Shown piece by piece: positions 21,298 to 42,299 of a stretch of DNA of 64,000 bases. The DNA comes from a virus (taxonomy: Duplodnaviria; Caudoviricetes). Each line of letters starts with the position of its first letter. Position 1 is the stretch's first letter. A program made the position numbers and the translations under genes. The DNA lies in IMG/VR virus record IMGVR_UViG_3300020577_003668, positions 32,001 to 96,000 of that record, one strand, 5' to 3'. The notes below the pieces were generated by a model. It worked only from the letters and a program-made list of their open reading frames with translations. It was not told the origin of the DNA and did not search any database.

Positions 21298-22339
21298 AAT
21301 TATATTTTAGCAGTTTACCTCTACCAGTCCAGCTGGCTCGGTAGGATAAGTACGGATAAAGAAGAGGTCCGTGCCTGCTAAAATATAATTAGGAATAGTA
21401 ATGAAAGAAGAGTTTCCAAGACAACTAACTGAGGACTACTACGACGATGGTAGAGGTCCGTCATTGACCTATCACGGGTACAATCTGTATAAAACCTGTA
21501 TCGCGTGTCCTGAACAGTACGACGTGTTTAAGGATGGAAAGCTTGTAGGATATATTAGGCTTCGTGGTGGTTGGCTTCAGGCTTTTTGCCCTGATGTTTT
21601 CCTTGAGCGAGTTTACTTCCACGAGTTTCCTAACGACGAGTGGAAGGGTTGCTTTGAAACTGACGAAGAACAGGACTACTATCTAGAGTACGTAATCATA
21701 GCGATTGATGATTGGGTACGAAAAAACGAACTTGAATCGCAAAGCCTTTCTTGATATAATAATTGTTCGATATGTGATAATACCAAGCATACCGCTGAGG
21801 TACAAGGCGTAGTATGTTAGCCGGATCGCAAGACGCAAAACGAGTAATGCGGCGCACTCGGGTATATTTACTAGAGGATGAGCGCTCTAGTATCTTAATG
21901 TAGCTTCGATACCCAGGAAGACTGGTCACGGTCCTGGCAGTAATATGTGACCGTCTACAGACCCAGAGTTGAGTTTACAACTCTTCAAAAAGAAAACTGG
22001 TGGAACAGTCTAACTATCGACATTAAATTTAGTCAATCTGTGAAACACCAGGTTGGTCCCGACAGTCGCAAGTCTTTAACACGCGAGTAGGTAATATGTC
22101 TGACTATTCCGTCGAAAGATACGGTGCATTGGGGAAGACACGCTTTAAGCTGCTAACAGGCGTTTTCTATTGAGTTAGCCCAGGACCGAGTAACCTGGAC
22201 CTTTATACGAAGTAATTAAGGCTGGACGGATACGACGTACTTGAACTACGTCCGATAACGACCGCTGAGAATTGGTTGGTCCCTTTTCTACAGCTTCTAG
22301 CACGACCACTTAGTTGCTTCCTATAAAGGTTTTGAATTA

Positions 22340-22444
22340 CCCTGTATTGCTAATATTGGTAAAGAGCGACCCTTATAAAGTCGTAGTAAGCACTCAATAG
22401 ATAATTGAGCTTCAATCTTGGTTCGATTCCAAGTGCAGGGACCA
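22340..22444 (+). tRNA. tRNA-Ile(UAU) with long variable arm
   Basis: CCCTGTA/TGCAGGG+ACCA, TAT anticodon, ~33-nt variable region. Confidence 0.75.
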
Positions 22445-22448
22445 CAAC

Positions 22449-22515
22449 AGGCGAAAAGGGTAGCTCCCCTGACAGTGCCTATATCACTGTATAGCCTATC
22501 TTATATAGGAAGAGT
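22449..22515 (+). promoter_or_regulatory. Conserved pseudoknotted leader of endonuclease genes, copy 1
   Basis: GAAAAGGGTAGCTCCCC core; loop CCTATAT pairs with ATATAGG at the RBS. Confidence 0.75.
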
Positions 22516-23106
22516 ATGTATACTAAAGAAATAGTCCCATTAAAGGGCCTAAAAGCTGGCTATGTAATATTCAGAGATCATAGCCACCCCTTAGCCTATG
22601 ATGATGGCGCTGTATATTTGCACAGACATGTTGCAAGTATTAAGTTGGGGAGATGGGTTACAAGCGAAGAGTATGTTCATCATATTGATGAAAATAAGTT
22701 AAATAATGAACCTTATAATCTAGAAATACTATCTAACTCAGAGCATAGTAAGATACATAATCCAAATAATTTAAGTAAGATTATTTGCCCAACATGTAAA
22801 AAAGAATTCCAACCCATTAGTTGCAAAATACAATATTGTTCTCCTAAATGTTACGCAGTAACAACTATTAAAAATACAAAGATAACAAAAGAATTATTAG
22901 ATGAACTTATACCTAAGACTTCTTGGAGAGATTTAGGTAATATGTTTGGATATTCAGATAACGGAATAAAGAAGCGTGCTAAGGCTTTAGGGTGTGACAC
23001 TTCTAATGCAAAGAATAAGCGAATGCCAGCTAGACCGAATGGGGGGTACACGCTTGATAAGCGTGCTGTACTTGGATCGAAACCAAGAGTTGGTACCAAA
23101 GGATAA
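22516..23106 (+). CDS. HNH homing endonuclease
   Basis: YLHRHV, VHHIDENKLNN, NL..L...EH, CPTC/YCS..C. Confidence 0.9.
   Translation: MYTKEIVPLKGLKAGYVIFRDHSHPLAYDDGAVYLHRHVASIKLGRWVTSEEYVHHIDENKLNNEPYNLEILSNSEHSKIHNPNNLSKIICPTCKKEFQPISCKIQYCSPKCYAVTTIKNTKITKELLDELIPKTSWRDLGNMFGYSDNGIKKRAKALGCDTSNAKNKRMPARPNGGYTLDKRAVLGSKPRVGTKG
23025..23098 (+). tRNA. tRNA-Ile(GAU)
   Basis: Cloverleaf, GAT anticodon, CCA; lies inside the 3' end of the HNH ORF. Confidence 0.85.
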
Positions 23107-23107
23107 T

Positions 23108-23190
23108 GCCCCTGTGACTTATGCAAATTGGCACAGCTACGAGTCTTAGAAGCTCGGTTTTTCCCGGTTCGAATCCGGGCGGGGGTACCA
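23108..23190 (+). tRNA. tRNA-Leu(UAG), short variable arm
   Basis: CGAGT-CTTAGAA-GCTCG, CCA. Confidence 0.85.
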
Positions 23191-23235
23191 AATTTTCAGA
23201 TTGATTTTAGAATCCATCCATAGTATAATTATATT

Positions 23236-23874
23236 ATGGAGGACTCAAAAATGATCGAAGAATTAGTATACAAAATATGTACAGTAATCGGGGAGGACCC
23301 CGATAAAAAAATAAAGAGACCTATAAGAGGTCTACCAGGTATAACTGTATTTAGTCTAATAGAGGCGCTATTAGTAGCCGGTACCCTTAATAAGGCTGCT
23401 GAATATTTAGGATATACCACCAATCCCGTAAAACAGGCAATTAAAGAGGTACTAATACCTACCTTTAGTACTAGGCATAAAGAATATGGTAGTGGAGGTG
23501 GTCTAACCCCCTGGAAATACGAGTTACTAAAGTGTATTAACTATAAGTGTTGTGGCCAATGTAATAGAATATTGCCACATAGCGAATATTACTCTAATAC
23601 GTCTAGAATAGTAGATGGGCTTGCAAGTTTTTGTAAATCGTGTAATATAGCTGCTTCAAAATCCCACAAGTATTATATAGTACAAAGAACCCCTTCCTGG
23701 TCGGAACTAGACTTAATAGCCGAATTCTATAGAAACTGTCCTATAGGTTATCACGTAGATCATATATTACCCCTCAGAGGGAATAACGTAAGTGGCTTAC
23801 ACGTATTAAGTAATCTACAATATCTCTCCGCCACAGAAAACATGAAAAAGGGTAATAAGTTTAGTATTGAATAA
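23236..23874 (+). CDS. HNH endonuclease
   Basis: GYHVDHILPL...GLHV..NLQ...EN.KK.N. Confidence 0.9.
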   Translation: MEDSKMIEELVYKICTVIGEDPDKKIKRPIRGLPGITVFSLIEALLVAGTLNKAAEYLGYTTNPVKQAIKEVLIPTFSTRHKEYGSGGGLTPWKYELLKCINYKCCGQCNRILPHSEYYSNTSRIVDGLASFCKSCNIAASKSHKYYIVQRTPSWSELDLIAEFYRNCPIGYHVDHILPLRGNNVSGLHVLSNLQYLSATENMKKGNKFSIE

Positions 23875-23876
23875 TT

Positions 23877-23961
23877 GCCAGAGTGGAGTAACGGTAGCCT
23901 CTGCGGACTTAAAATTCGCCGTCCTTGTGGCGTACGGGTTCGATTCCCGTCTCTGGTACCA
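23877..23961 (+). tRNA. tRNA-Leu(UAA)
   Basis: Cloverleaf with V-arm, CCA. Confidence 0.9.
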
Positions 23962-23967
23962 AATAAT

Positions 23968-24043
23968 ACGAAAATAACTCAAATGGCTAGAGTCCCGCCT
24001 CTTAAGCGGTGAGATCCTGGTTCGATCCCAGGTTTTCGTACCA
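23968..24043 (+). tRNA. tRNA-Lys(CUU)
   Basis: Cloverleaf, CCA. Confidence 0.9.
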
Positions 24044-24160
24044 AGAACAGCGGAGTTGAGACCCGAAAACTAGAACCAACCGTATAAGTTACCTTATACG
24101 ACTTAGGTGGTCGAATTCTAGCACGATAGTTGAAGCCTTAGACTATCCTCTTACGTTTCT

Positions 24161-24306
24161 AAAACCGCGGGCTAGTTTAATAGGAAAAACACCGCGCGCG
24201 AAACTCCCTACCCTATGGCAGTATGTACGGTCTGCAGCCGACTATATACGTAAGCAATGGGACATACATGTGAGATACATCTTTCGAAGGATGTGCCCAC
24301 GGTTTT
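24161..24306 (+). ncRNA. tRNA-like RNA with expanded anticodon domain
   Basis: CCGCGGGC/GCCCACGG closing stem, TAGTTTAATAGGAAAAAC D-arm, ACATC-TTTCGAAG-GATGT T-like arm. Confidence 0.5.
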
Positions 24307-24322
24307 AGGAACTTAACATAAA

Positions 24323-24757
24323 ATGATTACATATACAAAAGGTAACGTAGCTTTAGCTAGAGAAGCTCATATTGCTCATGGCTGTAATGCTCAAGGCGTT
24401 ATGGGTTCTGGCGTAGCTAAGGAAATTCGTAGGCTATACCCTGATGCATATACTGCATATCGTATGGCGTACTTGCGTACAGGGCTTGAACTTGGTTCAG
24501 TTGTTGTAGCTACTCCTATTGACGGTAAGATCATCTATAACTGCATTACTCAGCAGTATTATGGTAATGATGATAAGGTATACGCTTCGTATGAAGCAAT
24601 TGCTAAATGCTTCGCCTTCATGAACGGTTGGGTAGCGGGCAGAGCTGCTTTAGCAATTCCACGTATTGGCTGTGGGCTTGGTGGACTTGAATGGGATAAA
24701 GTAGAAGCTATTATCTTGAAGGCTGCACGTTACGACGTTGTAGTCTACGATATTTGA
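24323..24757 (+). CDS. Macro domain (Poa1p/DarG-like) protein
   Basis: HGCNAQGVMGSGVA, PRIGCGLGGL.W. Confidence 0.9.
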   Translation: MITYTKGNVALAREAHIAHGCNAQGVMGSGVAKEIRRLYPDAYTAYRMAYLRTGLELGSVVVATPIDGKIIYNCITQQYYGNDDKVYASYEAIAKCFAFMNGWVAGRAALAIPRIGCGLGGLEWDKVEAIILKAARYDVVVYDI

Positions 24758-24812
24758 TCTTGATTTCAGCGCTTAGACAGTATATAATATTGTCTAATCA
24801 GTGAGATTTTGA

Positions 24813-25124
24813 ATGACTAAAAAGAGATTTGGCGTGACCGCTATCATTTATGATAAGCGTGGTCGGGTTTTGAGTGTTGGTAGTAATAGTTATGTAAAGA
24901 CCCACCCGCTTCAAGCGGATCACGCTCGTCGTGCCGGGGAACCCAGTAAGATTTACCTACACGCGGAAATTCATGCGATTACTCGCTGCCGCGACATTTC
25001 TAAAGCCTATCGTATGGCTATTTTTAGGTATCTTGAAGATGGTTCCCCGGCGAGGGCGTGTCCTTGTAATATCTGTCGTAGCGCTATTGACGCTACCCCT
25101 ATTAAGATTGTTGAGCATACATGA
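24813..25124 (+). CDS. Zn-dependent nucleotide/cytidine deaminase-like protein
   Basis: HAE and PC..C motifs. Confidence 0.8.
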   Translation: MTKKRFGVTAIIYDKRGRVLSVGSNSYVKTHPLQADHARRAGEPSKIYLHAEIHAITRCRDISKAYRMAIFRYLEDGSPARACPCNICRSAIDATPIKIVEHT

Positions 25125-25319
25125 CCACTAATACTAAAGGTACCCCCAAGTCTTGTTCGTGTTCCCAATGCCGTAGAGGCAAACACGACGGAGCAAAAGA
25201 TATTGTAAAAGCAGATGAGCGGGCTTATCGGCACGCTGCAAAAATTGCTCTAGCTAATATGGATCTAGAAGAAGGCGTTGTGCTTAATTCTGGGCCCATT
25301 GGAAATTACTACGATTAAA

Positions 25320-25395
25320 CTCTCATAAGTGTTGCCTGATGGCATACTGCGTTTGGGGCGCAGTGGGGAAGGTTTGAATCCTTCATGGGAGACCA
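25320..25395 (+). tRNA. tRNA-Pro(UGG)
   Basis: Cloverleaf, CCA. Confidence 0.85.
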
Positions 25396-25453
25396 ATTAA
25401 AAAAATTAACTTGATTTTGTGCTGCATTTCAAGTATAATGATTACTAATCAGT

Positions 25454-25529
25454 GGGATTGTGGCGAAAGGGTTATCGCATCACCCTTTTAAGGTGTAAGT
25501 TATTGGTTCGAATCCAATCAGTCCTACCA
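25454..25529 (+). tRNA. tRNA-Lys(UUU)
   Basis: Cloverleaf, CCA. Confidence 0.9.
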
Positions 25530-25751
25530 AAGAATTACCGAGCATTTTAGCTGGCGCTTCCGACAACCTCCGGATAGGCTACTATGTGTGTTAGAGGTGA
25601 CGCGAGTAAGTGGCGATCTCAAGGGCCTAGCGTTAATGCAACGTATAGGATATCCAAGTATCAAAACCTCGTTCGGTGTAGTGAGCTAATTTTGTATTTT
25701 TTACGAGTTCACTTTAATCTCTAGACGTTAAAAACCCTTAGTTCGCTAAGG

Positions 25752-25827
25752 CGTGATCTTATCTCAAGTGGAAGAGAGCAAGGCTGTGAACCTTGTAAGT
25801 ACGATTTCGACTATCGTAGATCACCCC
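25752..25827 (+). tRNA. tRNA-His(GUG)
   Basis: Cloverleaf, C73; CCA incomplete. Confidence 0.8.
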
Positions 25828-25845
25828 TTAACGAATTAAATTTAT

Positions 25846-25921
25846 TGCGGGCGAGGAAGACGGCAATCCAGCAGGCTCATAACCTGAAAATACTCAGTTC
25901 AACTCTGAGGCTCCGCAACCA
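25846..25921 (+). tRNA. tRNA-Met(CAU), possibly initiator type
   Basis: CAGG-CTCATAA-CCTG, CCA. Confidence 0.8.
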
Positions 25922-26140
25922 ATAAATAGCATAGGCGGTAGCATTATGCGTAGGTGAGACTCCTACAACTAATTAAAGACTTAAGGTAACGAATATACGT
26001 AGGCAGGATGACCGGATCAAGTCGCTTCGGCGAATGAGAGTTCAAATCGAACTTGTTCTTGTGAATAAGCCCATGCGCGGTGACGTACTTTTCGCGGAAC
26101 TGAGGATACTGCGCTGGTAATTGTCGCCCTCATTATTTTA

Positions 26141-26212
26141 GCGGCTAAGGTGTTTATGGACGCACGTTAGTCTTCCAAACTTAAGGAGTCGGATCGTTAC
26201 CGACTAGCCGCT
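26141..26212 (+). tRNA. tRNA-Gly(UCC)
   Basis: GCGGCTA/TAGCCGC-T, TCC anticodon; CCA not encoded. Confidence 0.8.
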
Positions 26213-26219
26213 CATCTAT

Positions 26220-26289
26220 AAGACGAAAAGGGTAGCTCCCCTGTCATTGCCTATATCAATGACTAGTCTTTTCTTATATAGGAAGAATT
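26220..26289 (+). promoter_or_regulatory. Conserved pseudoknotted leader, copy 2
   Basis: Same core with compensatory stem changes. Confidence 0.75.
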
Positions 26290-27009
26290 ATGACAATAGG
26301 AATATACTCTCTTTATTGGGAGAAAGAAGACTTAGTTTATGTTGGGCTGTCTCAGAATATAGAAGATAGATACAGAGAACATATTCTAAAAATGAGAAAA
26401 TTAAAGCATTCTAACTATAAAGTGCAGAATGCATATAATTTATATGGAATACCCAGACTAGCTATATTAGAAGAATGTAGTATACCAGAATTAAACGATA
26501 AAGAAATCTTTTGGACAAAAGAATTTAATTCTATTAATGCTGGGTTAAATATAGTAGAGGCAGGCGAAGTAGGTTGGGGTGTTAATTCGAATGCATCCAA
26601 ATATACTAAAAGACAAATATTAAAAGTATTTGCTGTATTATACAATACTTTTAATTCTGCCGAACAAATAGCTAGTAGGTGCGGAGTCCCTACGTCTTTT
26701 GTGCACACTATCTCTAAAGGAGATAGTCATAAGTGGTTGGAAGATGAATACCCGCAACAATTTGCAAAAATGCGTAAAATTGCTGAGTCGAGGGTAAGAC
26801 AGAAATTTTCTTCTGATATTATCTATATTAAAAACAATATAGTATATCTAAAAAGTCCTACTGGTGAAATAGTAAAAATAGATACCTCTATACGTGAGTT
26901 TTGTAGAAAACATAATTTAAACTCAGGCCCTATGTCTGAAGTTATAAAGGGCCAGAGAAATCAAAATAAAGGGTGGACTTTACATGCCCATTCTAAGAAA
27001 GAGGTATAG
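26290..27009 (+). CDS. GIY-YIG homing endonuclease
   Basis: GIY..VYVGLS...R..H; paralog of 18062. Confidence 0.9.
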   Translation: MTIGIYSLYWEKEDLVYVGLSQNIEDRYREHILKMRKLKHSNYKVQNAYNLYGIPRLAILEECSIPELNDKEIFWTKEFNSINAGLNIVEAGEVGWGVNSNASKYTKRQILKVFAVLYNTFNSAEQIASRCGVPTSFVHTISKGDSHKWLEDEYPQQFAKMRKIAESRVRQKFSSDIIYIKNNIVYLKSPTGEIVKIDTSIREFCRKHNLNSGPMSEVIKGQRNQNKGWTLHAHSKKEV

Positions 27010-27048
27010 TACGACCCGCAAATCAGTACTGCAAATAGAGATATTTGC

Positions 27049-27133
27049 TCCAAGGTGGCCAGAGTGGTAATGGTCCTCGCTGTTAACGAGATATGGTTAA
27101 CTACCTTCGTAGGTTCGATCCCTACCCTTGGAG
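27049..27133 (+). tRNA. tRNA-Asn(GUU) with long variable arm
   Basis: TCCAAGG/CCTTGGA-G, GTT anticodon. Confidence 0.85.
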
Positions 27134-27322
27134 CAAATATCTTTAGATACTACTAATAATTAAGTATTCTTTTGGGTATGAGTGTTAGACGTAACACCTA
27201 TGGGCCTGTTCTGGCGAGGAACTACCCTGATATAACTGTCTAGTCGCTATGGGATGAAAGCATCAGACCCCTAAATAGGACATAAGAATACTTAATTATT
27301 GGGCTTGTAGTATAGAATTATA

Positions 27323-27397
27323 GGGCTGTTCGTATACTGGGTATTACTTCTGTTTTGCATGCAGAAAAAGGCGGATCGTAACCGCCACGGTCCACCA
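27323..27397 (+). tRNA. tRNA-Ala(UGC)
   Basis: G3:U70, TGC anticodon, CCA. Confidence 0.9.
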
Positions 27398-27400
27398 TAT

Positions 27401-27473
27401 TAAGCGAAAAGGGTAGCTCCCCCGCTGTTGCCAACTCAACAGCTAGCTTATTAGTTTCTAGTTGGAGATAAAA
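27401..27473 (+). promoter_or_regulatory. Conserved pseudoknotted leader, copy 3
   Basis: Loop CCAACT pairs with AGTTGG overlapping the GGAG RBS. Confidence 0.75.
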
Positions 27474-27974
27474 ATGATTATAAAAGAATTTGTATCTAAG
27501 GATACATCTAATAGAACTCGTATGTTTTTAGAACTTCAATGCGAAGTTTGTAAGACTATATTTAGTAGGCAAAAAAGACTAGTAAATACACATACGTGTT
27601 CTGCTAAATGTAGAAATGCCTTTACAGGTATAACTGTAGAATTACAGTGTGATAACTGTGGGGTACCTTTCTTTAGAGCTAAATCTAAACTAGATAATTC
27701 TAAGTCTGGTAAGTATTTTTGCTGTAGACAGTGTAAAGATACTGCACAAACATATATGGAAGAAATAAGGCCGGAACATTATGGTAATGGTAGAGCTTCC
27801 TATAGAGAAAAAGCTTTTAGACATTATAAACCTATTTGTACAAAATGTGGTTTTTCTAATAGATTAGCCCTAGAAGTTCATCATAAAGACAAAGATCGTA
27901 ATAATAACGAAATAGATAATTTAGAAATATTATGTGCTAATTGTCATAATATTTCTCATGCTCTTTTAGCTTAG
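27474..27974 (+). CDS. HNH endonuclease with Zn fingers
   Basis: CTKCG..LEVHHKD..R.NN...NL..LC.NCH. Confidence 0.9.
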   Translation: MIIKEFVSKDTSNRTRMFLELQCEVCKTIFSRQKRLVNTHTCSAKCRNAFTGITVELQCDNCGVPFFRAKSKLDNSKSGKYFCCRQCKDTAQTYMEEIRPEHYGNGRASYREKAFRHYKPICTKCGFSNRLALEVHHKDKDRNNNEIDNLEILCANCHNISHALLA

Positions 27975-28034
27975 TGGAAAAGCCCCTACTTGGTATGTAG
28001 GAGAGCGTTAGTTCGATTCTAACATAGAGCACCA
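27960..28034 (+). tRNA. tRNA-Thr(GGU)
   Basis: Cloverleaf, CCA. Confidence 0.85.
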
Positions 28035-28679
28035 TATTACTATTATTCGATCTGGATTCGTCTCGCTAACTACTGTAGTTTATGAGTCAGTATCGCAAAT
28101 AGCTCATGGCGATAGAGTTACTATGCCAACTAATTAAATACTATGAAAATTAAAGACTTGATCGCTGAACTGGAAGCATTGTATAATACATATGATGATG
28201 AATACAAAGAGATTATGGGCGAGCCTGGAATCTCTTTGGATGTGTTTAGACGAAAGTACCCAGGCAGTCCTAACCCTGATAGGTTATATGCTGGTATTAC
28301 TGCTGATATCAAAATAGAAAAGTATCCACGTAACTGGTACGAACCAGTTATCAACGCTTTTGCGGAACCTTATGATGAAGATCACGATAAAACTGAAGAA
28401 GGCAAGAAACGTATTGGTAGTCCTTGCCCGTGGCCGCAAAGCTGGCAAACATAAAATTTCTGCTAGAAAGCTGGCACGTAACGAAGTATGAAAAGAGCTC
28501 TAGGATTTATTTTTATAATAGGCTCAGCGTTAGCTAGCTAGTTACAAAAGGGTTGCTGCACTCCGCAACTGTATTCATTATTCTAGCCTGCTCGTCATTT
28601 ATATTGGCCGAGCTAGAAGATATTAAGGATAAACTAAAATGAAAGATTTATCGCGACAGCAGTCGATCGCCGCATCTAA

Positions 28680-28754
28680 TGCCGGTAAATCGACTGTATC
28701 AGATACTTGGCTTTGACCCAAGGTAAGTAGGTTAGATTCCTACACCGGCTGCCA
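28680..28754 (+). tRNA. tRNA-Gln(UUG)
   Basis: TTG anticodon, U1:U72 mismatch, GCCA. Confidence 0.8.
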
Positions 28755-29577: not shown

Positions 29578-30909
29578 ATGTCTAGCCTAAATCGTACTGT
29601 ATATCGCCAAAATATTACTGGTGCCCAAATGGCCCAGAATCATCACGGCCTGAAGGTTACTGCCCTATCTCCTGAAGCCAAGCTGACTCGCCTAACCATG
29701 GCGCACATGCTTTGGGAAAAGCAATTCTATGTTGACGGACAGAAGTCCGCCGACCTAATGGCGTCCCTTGTTACCAAGGTGTCACCATCGTTCGTGTCCA
29801 ACCTGGCTCGCCAGGCGCGCGATAAGTTCAAGCTTCGTCACGTGCCTCTGCACCTGATGCGTTCACTTGCGAAGTCAGGCGCTCTCAAGGCGGCTGATCT
29901 AGCTGAAGTGATCCAACGTCCGGACGAACTTTCCGAGTTCGTTTCCCTTTACTGGGCCGACAAGAAGCAACCTCTGTCCAACCAGGTTAAGAAGGGTCTT
30001 GCACTTGCCTTTGGTAAGTTCAACGAATACCAACTTGCTAAGTGGGATAAGAACTCCGCAGTGGTATCGCTGCGCGACGTGATGTTCCTAGCACACCCAA
30101 AGCCTGCTAACGCAGAGCAAGCTGCCCTTTTCAAGAAGGTAGCAGACCAAAAGCTAGAAACCCCTGATACTTGGGAAACCAATCTATCTGCGGGTGCGGA
30201 TAAGAAGGCTACTTTTACCACCCTAATGCAGGATGGTAAGCTAGGTGCGCTTGCGTTCCTACGTAACCTTCGTAACATGGTGGAATCTGGTGTATCCGAA
30301 TCTCTGATTCGTGATTACTCCAAGACAGTTAACACTGATCGTGTTCTACCTTTCCGTTTCCTTGCGGCAGCCCGCATTGTTCCTCAATTTGAGGACATGC
30401 TAGAAGCAATGATGTTCCGTTCCTGCGAAGGTATGGAAAAGCTGCCAGGCAAGACTAAGCTATACGTAGACGTTTCCGGCTCCATGTATACCCCTAAGGT
30501 TAGTGAAAAGTCCGACCTAACACGTCAGGATGCTTCGCTTGCCCTAGCTATTCTGTGTCGGGAACTATGCGAAGAAGTAGAAATCTACAGCTTCAGCGGA
30601 AAATCTCTACGTATTGCCCCTCGCCGAGGGTTTGCTCTAGCAGACGCTATCAAGACCAGCCAAGGCTGCTCTGGTACTCAGCTAGGACATAGTCTGAAAG
30701 AAACCGAATCTAAAGCTGATCGCATCGTTGTAATCACTGATGAACAATCTAGTGATATGCCTTCTGCTCCTTTTGGTGGAGCCAAGGGTTACCTAATCAA
30801 CGTAGGTAGCTATCAGAACGGCGTTAACCATAACGCCTGGACTAGCATTACTGGCTTCTCCGAAGCTGTATTTAGCTATATCCAAATGTTCGAACGCGAA
30901 GGCGTTTAA
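29578..30909 (+). CDS. Ro60/Rsr-like TROVE-domain RNA-binding protein
   Basis: TROVE motifs (F.EYQLAKW, LRDV..L.HPKP, TWE..LS, A.LRNLRN, LPFRF) and vWA MIDAS DVSGS..T..ITDEQ. Confidence 0.93.
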   Translation: MSSLNRTVYRQNITGAQMAQNHHGLKVTALSPEAKLTRLTMAHMLWEKQFYVDGQKSADLMASLVTKVSPSFVSNLARQARDKFKLRHVPLHLMRSLAKSGALKAADLAEVIQRPDELSEFVSLYWADKKQPLSNQVKKGLALAFGKFNEYQLAKWDKNSAVVSLRDVMFLAHPKPANAEQAALFKKVADQKLETPDTWETNLSAGADKKATFTTLMQDGKLGALAFLRNLRNMVESGVSESLIRDYSKTVNTDRVLPFRFLAAARIVPQFEDMLEAMMFRSCEGMEKLPGKTKLYVDVSGSMYTPKVSEKSDLTRQDASLALAILCRELCEEVEIYSFSGKSLRIAPRRGFALADAIKTSQGCSGTQLGHSLKETESKADRIVVITDEQSSDMPSAPFGGAKGYLINVGSYQNGVNHNAWTSITGFSEAVFSYIQMFEREGV

Positions 30910-31914: not shown

Positions 31915-32220
31915 GATTGTCGTAATTCGGATCAAGCAGATGTGGGCCAGACGGGGCTTCGCCGCCCCCACCTCCACCAGTTAGTATAGAGTATAGATGC
32001 GCATCTAGTAATAGGCTAAGACCTAACAGAAATGTTCTCTGTACTAACTAATGGGGGTGAATATGTTTTCGATGGCGCAAATAAGTGAGATACGCGACAC
32101 GGTAGGCGATGACCGTTAATCAAGCAAAACCTTTAAATGCAGCAAACGATGCATACTTCGGAGAAGAACGCCTAGCGGCGTAATCCCGATGTAGGAGCTA
32201 TCCTATATCAAACAAAATAG
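31915..32220 (+). ncRNA. ssrA: Circularly permuted (two-piece) tmRNA
   Basis: Acceptor piece ending CACCTCC-ACCA (31979) precedes coding piece starting GGGGGTG (32053), giving G3:U70; tag (A)ANDAYFGEERLAA* ends 32183. Confidence 0.9.
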
Positions 32221-36088: not shown

Positions 36089-36942
36089 AAAAATGTCTTG
36101 TTTTGATAAGAAGGCTTATAAGTATCTCAAGCAGGCTGCAAAGAGCGCTAAAGACGTTCACGTAATCAGCGATCCTTGCTATCTGGATGGTGCGGTAGGT
36201 GTTAGTATCGCGTATCGCCCCTCTATTGAAAATACTAACTGCCGAATGCTGGACGTCGCTGTTTCTTATTGCTCACCGGAAGATAAGTACAAGCGCAAGC
36301 ATGGGAAGTACCAAGCACTAAAACGCTTGGCAGCGGGTGAGGTTGTGAAGATGCCACATGCACAATTACTATTTAATGAAGGTCCTGAAGCAGTTAACGA
36401 AGTTCTAATTGCTGCTTTTACAGTTGATTATTAAAGAATACCCGCCTAGTGCGGGTATTTGTATTTGTGGAAAGACATAACGTGCAAGATATTACAACCA
36501 TTGTAAAGGCACAGGAACAAATTGAAGGCCTGCGCCAAGCTTCAAAAATCCACGAGGCAGAGATATCCACTAATCTAAAGAAAATAGTGGAACTTCAGGA
36601 CTTTATAGTTAAGAACTGCCCCCATTCTACTGTTAGTAGAAAGTCTAAGTACTCAAGTGGTGGATACGACTATAGATCCGAAACTACTAACTGGCAAGAG
36701 TGTACAATTTGCGGTCAACGATTCAATGAAAGAAAAACATATGGCGGCTTCCAATAATAGGTTTGCATTAGTGGATATTCTTGGTAAGACATTGACAGTA
36801 TATGAAAAACGCAAGCCACTAGCAACCTATCACTTTGTCGATGGAAAGGTCCCTTCTGCCGAAGACATTGAATGGGCACGTACCGAAGAATATAAGGACA
36901 GAGCATAAAATTTGCTTGAATATAAAGGTAAAAAGTAATATA

Positions 36943-37602
36943 ATGAGTGAATGTTCAGTAAAATTAGTTGCCGTAACTAAGCCAGTAATTGAAGGACTAG
37001 AAACCGCAGAAGACTTTGTAGCTTATGCAGCTAGAGTATCTAATCCATCTAATCAGATGAATACAGAGACCTCTAGTAGGTTGCTAAAGTATCTGGTTAA
37101 AAACCAGCACTGGTCGCCGTTCGAAATGGCACATGCTGTCATGGAGATCAACACTACTAGAGATATTGCTAGACAGATTTTAAGGCATCGTAGTTTCTCC
37201 TTTCAGGAGTTTAGCCAGCGGTATGCTAATGCGGAAGATTTAGGCTTTCAACTAAGAGAAGCTAGACTGCAAGATACCAAAAATAGGCAGAATAGTCTAG
37301 AAGTAGAGGACGCTAATTTAGAAGCTGAGTGGGAGTACTTCCAGGAAGAGCTTCTAGAAGAGGTTAAAGAAATTTATCGCTGGGCCATTGATAATGGTAT
37401 TGCTAAAGAACAAGCTCGCGCAGTACTACCTGAAGGCTTGACTAATAGTCGTCTATATATGTCTGGTTCTCTACGCTCCTGGTTACATTATTGCGCAATT
37501 CGTACAGATAAAGCTACTCAGAAAGAACATCGTGAAGTGGCGGATCAAGCTCTGCTAATTCTAAAGAAAGAATTCCCCTCAATCTCGGAATTAATCCTAT
37601 GA
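36943..37602 (+). CDS. thyX: Flavin-dependent thymidylate synthase
   Basis: HWSPFE, RHRSFSFQEFSQRY, EQARAVLP. Confidence 0.95.
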   Translation: MSECSVKLVAVTKPVIEGLETAEDFVAYAARVSNPSNQMNTETSSRLLKYLVKNQHWSPFEMAHAVMEINTTRDIARQILRHRSFSFQEFSQRYANAEDLGFQLREARLQDTKNRQNSLEVEDANLEAEWEYFQEELLEEVKEIYRWAIDNGIAKEQARAVLPEGLTNSRLYMSGSLRSWLHYCAIRTDKATQKEHREVADQALLILKKEFPSISELIL

Positions 37603-41064: not shown

Positions 41065-41383
41065 TGCACCGCTATACGAAAAAATTCTATCTGAAAACCC
41101 TGAAAAAGGTTCGCAACTACGACTTGTAGTAAGTCTATTTCGCGATGTAGAATATTTGCATATCCGTAAATATTTTCTGTCATATGATGAAGGGTACGTA
41201 CCGACTAAGGAAGGTATCTCCATGCCGGCCACTATTTCTAGTATTTATGCGTTATTGGACGGGCTAGTAGAAATTTGCTCATACGAAGAAAGCATTGACT
41301 CGGTAATTAAACACTTTGGCGAAAAGATAGAAGCACTAAAAAATGAACAAGCTAACAGAGTTCCTGAACCTAGCGGCTCGTAA
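41057..41383 (+). CDS. PC4-like nucleic-acid-binding protein
   Basis: LVVS.FR..EYLHIRKY....PTKEGISMP; T5 synteny. Confidence 0.75.
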   Translation: MSDAPLYEKILSENPEKGSQLRLVVSLFRDVEYLHIRKYFLSYDEGYVPTKEGISMPATISSIYALLDGLVEICSYEESIDSVIKHFGEKIEALKNEQANRVPEPSGS

Positions 41384-42299
41384 TTATTACGCCGGAAATC
41401 CGATTATTTCCGATGAAGTATTTGATAGGTTATCTGAATCGGCAGGATATGACAAAGTTGGGGCTAAACAACATGAGCATCTTGAAAAGCACCTATACCC
41501 AATGTATAGCCTTCAAAAACACTATGAAGGAGAGGGCACTAGGCCTGTGCTACCAGGAACCCGAATTGATACAAGTCCTAAGCTGGATGGCGCTGCTATT
41601 AGCGCTCTCTATATTAATGGTGCTCTTGTACGTGTACTCACTCGTGGCGATGGCGTAGAGGGTACCATTGTAACTGATAAGTTTTTAGTTACTAAACTTA
41701 TCCCACATTATATTTCTGATTCCTCGATTCCAGATATACTGCAAATTACCGGAGAACTATGTGCTCCAAAGCATGTGGAAAATGCTAGAAACTATGCAGC
41801 AGGTGCATTAAATCTAAAAGACGTGAATGAGTTCCGCACACGTAGTGTTGAATTCTTTGCCTATGGAGTTAATCCTGTCCTCACGGATTCTTTTCAGCAC
41901 GATATGATGATGCTGAAGTCGTGGGGTTTCAATACAGTAAAAGACCCTGAACTGTGGAATATCTTCCCAACCGACGGTATCGTTCATAGACTGGATTCAA
42001 ATAAAGAGTTCTACGAAGCAGGATACACTTCCAAACATCCTAAGGGAGCATTGGCAGTAAAAGAGCGTGGAGCTAGTGTTGAAACTAAATTACTAGATGT
42101 AATTTGGCAGACAGGAAAATCCGGTAAAGTGACTCCTGTAGCAATCCTAGAGCCAGTACTAGTAGGTGATGCGATGGTCTCTAGAGCAACACTGAATAAT
42201 ATTGCGTTCATTAAAGCCCTGGAAATTAAAATCGGAGACACTATTGGGCTCATTAGAGCGGGTGAAATCATACCCCAGATCACGCACAAGGTTGTATAG
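41343..42299 (+). CDS. ligA: NAD-dependent DNA ligase subunit A
   Basis: PKLDG, TRGDG, RNYAAG, OB domain. Confidence 0.95.
   Translation: MNKLTEFLNLAARNYYAGNPIISDEVFDRLSESAGYDKVGAKQHEHLEKHLYPMYSLQKHYEGEGTRPVLPGTRIDTSPKLDGAAISALYINGALVRVLTRGDGVEGTIVTDKFLVTKLIPHYISDSSIPDILQITGELCAPKHVENARNYAAGALNLKDVNEFRTRSVEFFAYGVNPVLTDSFQHDMMMLKSWGFNTVKDPELWNIFPTDGIVHRLDSNKEFYEAGYTSKHPKGALAVKERGASVETKLLDVIWQTGKSGKVTPVAILEPVLVGDAMVSRATLNNIAFIKALEIKIGDTIGLIRAGEIIPQITHKVV

Follow-up and report, generated by a model that had tools for sequence, protein, structure and literature searches.

A structured leader RNA with a near-invariant core, probably a translational brake, upstream of phage homing endonuclease genes

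A leader of about 70 nucleotides (nt) that directly precedes three homing endonuclease genes in a phage genome belongs to a real, widespread and uncatalogued family of structured RNAs that is almost confined to viruses. The genome is the 105,545-base-pair (bp) IMG/VR virus record IMGVR_UViG_3300020577_003668, which has direct terminal repeats; we analyzed its bases 32001–96000, a stretch of 64,000 nt referred to here as the window. The leader joins a three-way junction (helices P1, P2 and P3), built around a 17-nt core, to a small hairpin (P4) that holds the Shine–Dalgarno sequence (SD) of the following gene, and the loop of P3 (L3) is complementary to the loop of P4 (L4). It most likely serves as a portable translational brake on homing endonucleases, a function suggested by the covarying fold and by its constant placement over the SD. 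No selfish genes are more common in large phages than homing endonucleases; to our knowledge, how these are restrained from harming their carrier is largely unknown beyond a few examples in phage T4.

Results

Three leader copies between tRNAs and nuclease genes

The core, GAAAAGGGTAGCTCCCC, is matched exactly at three plus-strand positions of the window (22453, 26225 and 27406). No fourth site appeared in the window even with up to three mismatches allowed (chance expectation 0.13), and the leader copies of the whole source genome are limited to these three. Each begins about 3–6 nt past a tRNA (6 nt past tRNA-Gly for copy 2, 3 nt past tRNA-Ala for copy 3) and runs up to the ATG of a nuclease gene (Table 1). 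With R1, a covariance model made from 65 leaders, the three copies stand far apart from the next-best match in the window, which scores 12 bits. The P1 strands pair as AGGC/GCCT, AAGAC/GTCTT and TAAGC/GCTTA, L3 matches the ribosome-binding site (RBS) as CCTATAT/ATATAGG or CCAACT/AGTTGG, and the three-way junction is the minimum-free-energy fold of copies 2 and 3. A first-pass annotation, made from the letters of this DNA, had placed three leaders between a tRNA 3' end and an endonuclease ATG and had drawn stems P1 and P3 and a complementarity between the P3 loop and the RBS; exact core matches, tRNA calls and Pfam searches confirm the placement, and all of these pairings are present in the window sequence.

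Table 1. Leader copies, their elements and the flanking genes (window coordinates)
Feature	Coordinates	Strand	Evidence or detail
tRNA, anticodon UAU, long variable arm (~30 nt), upstream of copy 1	22340..22444	+	Rfam RF00005, 35.2 bits, match 22340-22441; missed by ARAGORN
Leader copy 1	22449..22515	+	sequence; model R1 67.4 bits; family covariation
Copy 1 P1	22449-22452/22494-22497		
Copy 1 core	22453-22469		
Copy 1 P2	22458-22460/22466-22468		GGG/CCC
Copy 1 P3	22472-22477/22485-22490		
Copy 1 L3	22478-22484		CCTATAT
Copy 1 P4	22499-22502/22510-22513		
Copy 1 L4	22503-22509		ATATAGG
Copy 1 SD	22507-22510		AGGA
HNH_3 endonuclease open reading frame (ORF), 196 amino acids (aa)	22516..23106	+	Pfam HNH_3 39.6 bits; PHROG HNH endonuclease
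tRNA-Gly (UCC), upstream of copy 2	26141..26213	+	ARAGORN
Leader copy 2	26220..26289	+	sequence; R1 72.0 bits
Copy 2 P1	26220-26224/26266-26270		
Copy 2 core	26225-26241		
Copy 2 P3	26243-26249/26257-26263		
Copy 2 L3	26250-26256		CCTATAT
Copy 2 P4	26271-26275/26283-26287		
Copy 2 L4	26276-26282		ATATAGG
GIY-YIG endonuclease ORF, 239 aa, C-terminal part I-HmuI NUMOD-like	26290..27009	+	Pfam GIY-YIG 24.7 bits (cut-off 22.6)
tRNA-Ala (UGC), upstream of copy 3	27323..27397	+	ARAGORN
Leader copy 3	27401..27473	+	sequence; R1 69.5 bits
Copy 3 P1	27401-27405/27446-27450		
Copy 3 core	27406-27422		
Copy 3 P3	27424-27430/27437-27443		
Copy 3 L3	27431-27436		CCAACT
Copy 3 P4	27457-27459/27466-27468		
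Copy 3 L4	27460-27465		AGTTGG
Copy 3 SD	27464-27468		GGAGA
HNH endonuclease ORF, 166 aa; stop inside tRNA-Thr (27960-28034)	27474..27974	+	Pfam HNH 26.2 bits (cut-off 21.4)

The leader is a widespread family almost confined to viruses

An exact scan located the same core on at least 118 IMG/VR viral contigs, at no fewer than 120 loci drawn from many different datasets, and nearly every match shows the same full layout. From 5' to 3', this comprises the first strand of P1 (4–6 bp), the core plus one U, P3 (7 bp) with a 6–7-nt L3, the dinucleotide UA, the 3' strand of P1, a short linker and the complement of L3, which merges into the SD; the ATG follows 6–9 nt on. Viral copies score 45–77 bits with R1. 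Among 185,579 prokaryote species genomes (one genome per species), there were 21 exact core matches, 20 of which score 18–27 bits and lack the fold, so that they serve as a chance control; the remaining match is a full leader on a 4-kb contig of a metagenome-assembled genome. A canonical copy (74.4 bits) is also present in the cultured Escherichia phage EP_H11, at 22496–22570 of OP688485.1, upstream of a 303-aa orphan ORF.

With a cut-off of E ≤ 1, scanning 22 kb against Rfam 15 assigned no family to the leaders, and the best match in two 101-nt scans at E ≤ 10 reached 21 bits against a gathering score of 65; the Rfam search proposed in the first-pass annotation thus yields no family that reaches its gathering score on the leader. 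Full-text literature searches returned no description of the leader RNA and no biological paper containing the core sequence, and those on homing endonucleases with pseudoknots, RNA motifs or kissing loops returned T4 work only. Megablast of window positions 22300–28100 against cultured phages gave no match. A search of viral contigs found no relatives of the neighboring 144-aa ORF, and hence no allele of the window phage free of the homing endonuclease gene was obtained that way.

One 114-kb genome (G001, IMG/VR 3300043464_001836) carries six clear copies (L152, L156, L160 and L162–L164) and a weak seventh match of 13 bits. The core is canonical in three of the six and diverged in the other three, whose L3 holds CCUCC or CCUCA, like the anti-SD of 16S rRNA, and whose entire SD (GGAGG or GUGAGG) lies in the kissing loop.

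Covariation defines a junction and a loop–loop kiss over the Shine–Dalgarno sequence

We counted helix pairing in a MAFFT alignment of 61 full leaders that was not structure-fitted. Overall, 90.2% of the cells are paired, compared with 71.5% after shuffling and 40–53% after sliding. By helix, the paired fraction is 92.8% in P1 (compensatory changes at 5 of 5 pairs), 100% in P2, which is invariant in this set, 95.1% in P3 (7 of 7 pairs), 82.0% in the L3–L4 contact (5 of 6 pairs) and 82.4% in P4 (4 of 4 pairs). For the junction domain, aligned by itself with plain MAFFT, pairing amounts to 94.7% versus 71.6% in the shuffled control, with compensatory changes at every pair of P1 and P3.

Across 41 distinct L3 loops, the contiguous Watson–Crick run to the RBS region of the same leader averages 5.83, while the control against the RBS regions of other leaders gives 3.46 ± 0.11. 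The kissing strand ends 6–9 nt before the ATG, and its final two bases open the SD. When the alignment is anchored on this complement of L3, a conserved CU stands immediately 5' and RGR immediately 3' of it, and the 4–6 bases on its 5' side pair with the 4–6 bases on its 3' side to form P4. The contiguous length of P4 averages 3.88, compared with 2.06 ± 0.13 in permuted and about 1.0 in slid controls; its pairs 1 to 4 are formed in 89, 94, 89 and 73% of 66 leaders, respectively. Because P4 brackets the complement of L3, that complement is the loop of P4, and the contact is a loop–loop kiss. The SD is divided between the last two bases of L4 and the 3' strand of P4, and the nuclease SD therefore lies within a base-paired structure, as it does in hairpins of the T-even type.

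Calculated energies are −2.5 kcal/mol (median) for P4 alone, with −0.2, −1.0 and −3.0 for the window copies, about −5.5 kcal/mol for the L3:L4 duplex and about −16 kcal/mol for the junction domain, values that would fit a clamp on P4 by L3. The covariation of P1, P3 and the P3 loop with the RBS, first noticed in the window copies, accordingly extends to the family and far exceeds the shuffled, slid and permuted controls. The RBS-sequestering pseudoknot proposed at that stage holds insofar as L3 is matched to its own RBS, but the contact is a kiss to the P4 loop and not a plain H-type pseudoknot; P4, the hairpin that holds the SD, had been overlooked.

The core is near-invariant

The core is fixed by construction in the exact-match set, and whole viral records were therefore searched with R1 for diverged copies. 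The rare diverged cores recovered are GAACAGGGUAGCUCCCU; GAAAGGG...; ...GGGUCGCUCCUC; GAAAAAGGGUUGCUCCUC; GGAUUGAUCC; and GAACAGAGUAGCUCUCU. A further one, GAGUUGCAACUC, belongs to the second copy in L037 and had already turned up among the fetched loci. Three variants replace a G-C pair of P2 with A-U on both sides (pair 2 in L177 and in the second copy of L037, pair 3 in L164), which establishes P2 as a true helix of 3 bp and the domain as a three-way junction. At the second position of the P2 loop, A, C and U all occur; no variant departs from the G, the AA, the loop U and G, or the junction UA. The canonical core is overwhelmingly dominant: among some 126 copies in the first 1.2 Mb, a single one was a variant. 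A scan for a core altered solely at the middle P2 guanine returned 0 copies, and a scan for the L037 variant core returned that copy alone, plus three chance matches without the fold. The core, initially described as invariant, is better called near-invariant: its canonical form is overwhelming, but rare diverged cores exist.

We take the core to be under strong purifying selection, whereas L3 and L4 vary freely together. It is probably a tertiary scaffold that positions P3, and possibly a sensor. As in a translational riboswitch, a conserved core (here of 17 near-invariant nt) is joined to an SD-sequestering platform (here the kiss and P4).

Other roles for the core were considered and dropped: dimerization through an AGCU palindrome in the P2 loop, which the variants UCGCU and UUGCU break; mimicry of a tRNA or anticodon arm by P2, where the likeness spans only 7–9 nt; and anti-SD or decoy-SD roles of its CUCCCC and AAGGG. 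The variant leader of L037 (6785–6839, minus strand; core GAAAAGAGUUGCAACUCC) has matched L3 and L4 and no ATG, GTG or TTG at the usual distance; either a zinc-finger ORF seems to start there at ATT, or the copy is decaying.

Leaders precede nucleases of unrelated folds

An ORF lies at the right distance behind 93 of 96 distinct parsed leaders, giving 92 distinct proteins. Searches against Pfam and PHROGs assign the majority to HNH_3, HNH and endonuclease VII types; the remainder comprise GIY-YIG/NUMOD proteins, "homing endonuclease" PHROGs, T5orf172/MUG113, a LAGLIDADG protein (L048) and PD-(D/E)XK proteins (PDDEXK_5 in L084, DUF559 in L011). By these assignments, four unrelated nuclease folds are predicted downstream: His-Me finger (HNH and endonuclease VII), GIY-YIG (with T5orf172), LAGLIDADG and PD-(D/E)XK. 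That the leader is common to unrelated homing endonucleases, as first suggested by the window copies, is upheld by this survey, and its link to start codons holds outside the window, with the kissing strand at its constant distance from the ATG. The 303-aa ORF of EP_H11 matches nothing in Pfam or PHROGs, and a search of 5.8 billion proteins found no homolog; the sole lead is a language-model match to T5orf172/MUG113 with a score of 0.92.

The leader appears to move with its nuclease gene

We examined genomic context in 78 non-redundant upstream regions. In about a third, a TTGACA-17-TATAAT/C promoter ends 6–7 nt before P1; in about 12, P1 begins 3–8 nt past a tRNA 3' end, and some others follow a terminator hairpin. 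With a promoter or a tRNA directly upstream, P1 would come to lie at or near the RNA 5' end in varied settings. The tRNA-operon setting named in the first-pass annotation is thus not a trait of the family and is confined to a minority of copies, while the portability that it also proposed fits a module found with varied genes and in varied contexts.

Comparisons at three genomic sites suggest that the leader moves with the nuclease ORF as a cassette. Between L006 (GIY-YIG type) and L055 (HNH type), the flanks are 83% and 82% identical; homology ends at P1 and resumes at the RBS of the next gene, and the two leaders have different P3, L3 and L4 and precede unrelated ORFs. Phages EP_H11 and IME392 are about 99% identical until 8 nt before P1 and then differ, with leader and ORF in EP_H11 only, although each of the two genomes contains several repeats of the upstream stretch, and the sites may therefore not be orthologous. 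In a contig of a related phage, from a run labeled RNA-Seq but probably DNA, the stretch right after tRNA-Gly (26213) is replaced by 603 other letters. L004 and L032 share an identical leader in front of different HNH_3 ORFs, so exchange points can also fall at the ATG.

The 57 nt upstream of the EP_H11 leader (L146:1440–1496; also L258) are a dispersed intergenic repeat, present at 6 places in EP_H11 and 5 in IME392.

Other features of the tRNA cluster

Two of the leader-bearing nuclease ORFs have 3' ends that reach into the next tRNA gene (23025–23106 and 27960–27974): the last 27 codons of the HNH_3 ORF overlap an Rfam tRNA at 23025–23095, and the HNH ORF stops within tRNA-Thr. A fourth nuclease-like ORF of 212 aa (23195–23874, plus strand) shows an HNH-type DH..N..N motif by eye and lacks both a Pfam match and a leader. 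It is accompanied by a promoter-like site, TTGATT...TATAAT, whose −10 box overlaps a local CCAUA/UAUGG hairpin beside the GGAGG of the ORF, resembling the T4-style arrangement.

The cluster also contains a permuted transfer-messenger RNA (tmRNA; 31918–32183, plus strand; Rfam RF04321, 96.7 bits, gathering score 47). Nearby, among the tRNAs, a 443-aa ORF (29578–30909, plus strand) matches the TROVE (Ro60-like) domain at 55 bits and, weakly, the Ro60 vWA domain; a Y-RNA-like partner may lie near it. Three tRNA matches are found by Rfam only (23025–23095, 28680–28751 and 25847–25917). Four long inter-tRNA stretches (24044–24320, 25540–25750, 25920–26140 and 27135–27320) are G+C-rich, pairing-prone and free of ORFs of 50 aa or more; they gave no Rfam match at E ≤ 1 and may contain other non-coding RNAs. 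Genes for ThyX (Thy1, 150 bits; 36835–37602) and an NAD-dependent DNA ligase (41343–42299) lie just past the cluster.

Discussion

We propose that the leader is most likely a brake on nuclease synthesis that travels with the gene it controls. The junction formed by P1, P3 and the P2 hairpin of the core would be stable and would hold up L3. P4, a weak helix of 4–6 bp just before the start codon, would use the 3' part of the SD as its 3' strand and present in L4 an exact complement of L3. The L3–L4 kiss would clamp the marginal P4 shut, burying the whole SD, so that 30S binding and nuclease synthesis would be kept low. Braking would be moderate and independent of genomic context, and where P1 lies at the transcript 5' end, behind a promoter or a processed tRNA, the leader may in addition act as an insulator between gene and surroundings and guard the end of the mRNA.

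Several observations weigh against a brake of this kind. Three leaders (L001, L073 and L087) have no matching ORF. Seen from the side of the HNH_3 gene, the leader is present at just three loci among the 80 viral relatives nearest to the window protein, and the nearest leaderless relatives stand directly past tRNAs with a bare SD, so the brake is not obligatory for such genes; since these relatives also follow tRNAs, tRNA adjacency is a habit of the nuclease genes and not of the leader. The kiss and P4 are only moderately stable, and repression may therefore be incomplete. Holding 17 nt so strictly constant, with a stem among them that would be free to covary, seems to go beyond the needs of a simple brake. 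Finally, the RNA-labeled runs consist of assembled contigs, which give no RNA ends, strand or levels and whose uncovered parts carry no meaning.

One alternative is a regulated switch, which we regard as unlikely. The core (GAAMA, the P2 hairpin, YU and UA) would then act as an aptamer or be contacted by a conserved factor, cellular or specific to infection; candidates are a small molecule, a host component (the 30S subunit or one of the ribosomal proteins) and a phage protein. Its binding would either reinforce or undo the kiss and give riboswitch-like timing of nuclease synthesis. Identity of the 17 nt in more than 120 copies, while P1, P3, L3 and P4 vary freely, is what such a site would leave, as is the failure of the scan to find cores changed at the middle P2 guanine alone; P1 has the shortness typical of a switching helix, and the expression platform is weak enough to tip either way. 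Yet the downstream genes are selfish nucleases, not metabolic genes, and offer no ligand logic; no conserved, mutually exclusive alternative fold was found, nor any likeness to an Rfam riboswitch, and rare variants with several core changes keep the architecture.

Two further explanations place the function elsewhere. An element that mainly stabilizes, insulates or processes the 5' end, with P1 guarding against 5'-end-dependent decay or marking a processing site near tRNAs and RBS masking secondary, would account for the position of P1 just past the −10 box in about a third of the upstream regions and just past a tRNA in about 12 of 78, and one subfamily has ACCA right after P1, like a tRNA acceptor end. 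We consider it improbable: it leaves unexplained both the match of L3 to its own RBS in 41 distinct versions and a P4 made from the SD, and the ACCA is limited to that subfamily. At a given genomic site, one ORF has been exchanged for another while the leader stayed the same or was a related one (L004/L032 and L006/L055), which could instead reflect an element acting as DNA (to provide homology for cassette exchange, as a homing target or as part of a promoter), and the junction GAAA and UA step recall hammerhead elements and hence a self-cleaving ribozyme. Little credence attaches to either, since compensatory changes in four helices speak for RNA structure and not DNA recognition, and one target site cannot serve four unrelated nuclease folds. 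A hammerhead was rejected directly: the leader has GAAAA and UA, but its third junction strand amounts to C-U alone, the CUGANGA strand is absent from the alignment, and neither a hammerhead nor any other Rfam ribozyme matches.

As a brake, the leader would be modular and self-contained, a constant scaffold combined with a freely reprogrammable loop pair. If confirmed, it would provide a marker for mobile nuclease cassettes and true start codons, an uncatalogued class of structured RNA with an unexplained near-invariant core, and a natural design for a tunable RBS lock. Were the sensor reading true, it would be the first riboswitch-like class for selfish nuclease genes, timing their synthesis to a physiological signal across phage lineages. 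EP_H11, a cultured phage of E. coli, is a system in which the idea is testable.

Among known RNAs, the leader shares with the preQ1-II and SAM-II/V riboswitches (SD in a pseudoknot) and the purine riboswitch (three-way junction with kissing loops) a compact junction with conserved unpaired bases, a tertiary loop contact, an SD within the tertiary fold and a short P1. It differs from them in matching none by sequence or model, in lacking a known ligand and any association with metabolic genes, and in that its kissing partner is the expression platform itself, whose sequence is free to vary. The HEARO or omega RNA of IscB is likewise a structured RNA beside an HNH-domain nuclease gene on a mobile element. 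HEARO, however, is a guide RNA of 200–300 nt working in trans with a single protein family, whereas the leader is about 70 nt long, would act in cis and precedes four predicted unrelated folds, and its variable loop matches its own RBS and not a target. We rejected an assignment to HEARO because Rfam gives no match and the genes downstream encode small nucleases of the HNH, GIY-YIG, LAGLIDADG and PD-(D/E)XK types, not IscB (RuvC-HNH).

The closest parallel lies in the T-even phages and their relatives, where RBS-sequestering hairpins control I-TevI, I-TevII, I-TevIII, segB and mobE of phage Aeh1, standing before both free-standing and intron-encoded nucleases (PMC2988022); segB of T4 is also located within a tRNA cluster (PMC2330249). 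Both systems place in cis an RNA that buries the SD of a phage homing endonuclease gene and limits, or in the leader would limit, its translation. The T-even hairpins are single local structures of individual sequence that form no conserved family, whereas the leader has a conserved four-helix fold with a near-invariant core and an RBS hairpin clamped by a programmable loop–loop kiss. In T-even phages, a late promoter within the hairpin bypasses control; the promoter of the leader, where present, ends upstream of P1, so that transcripts carry the whole leader.

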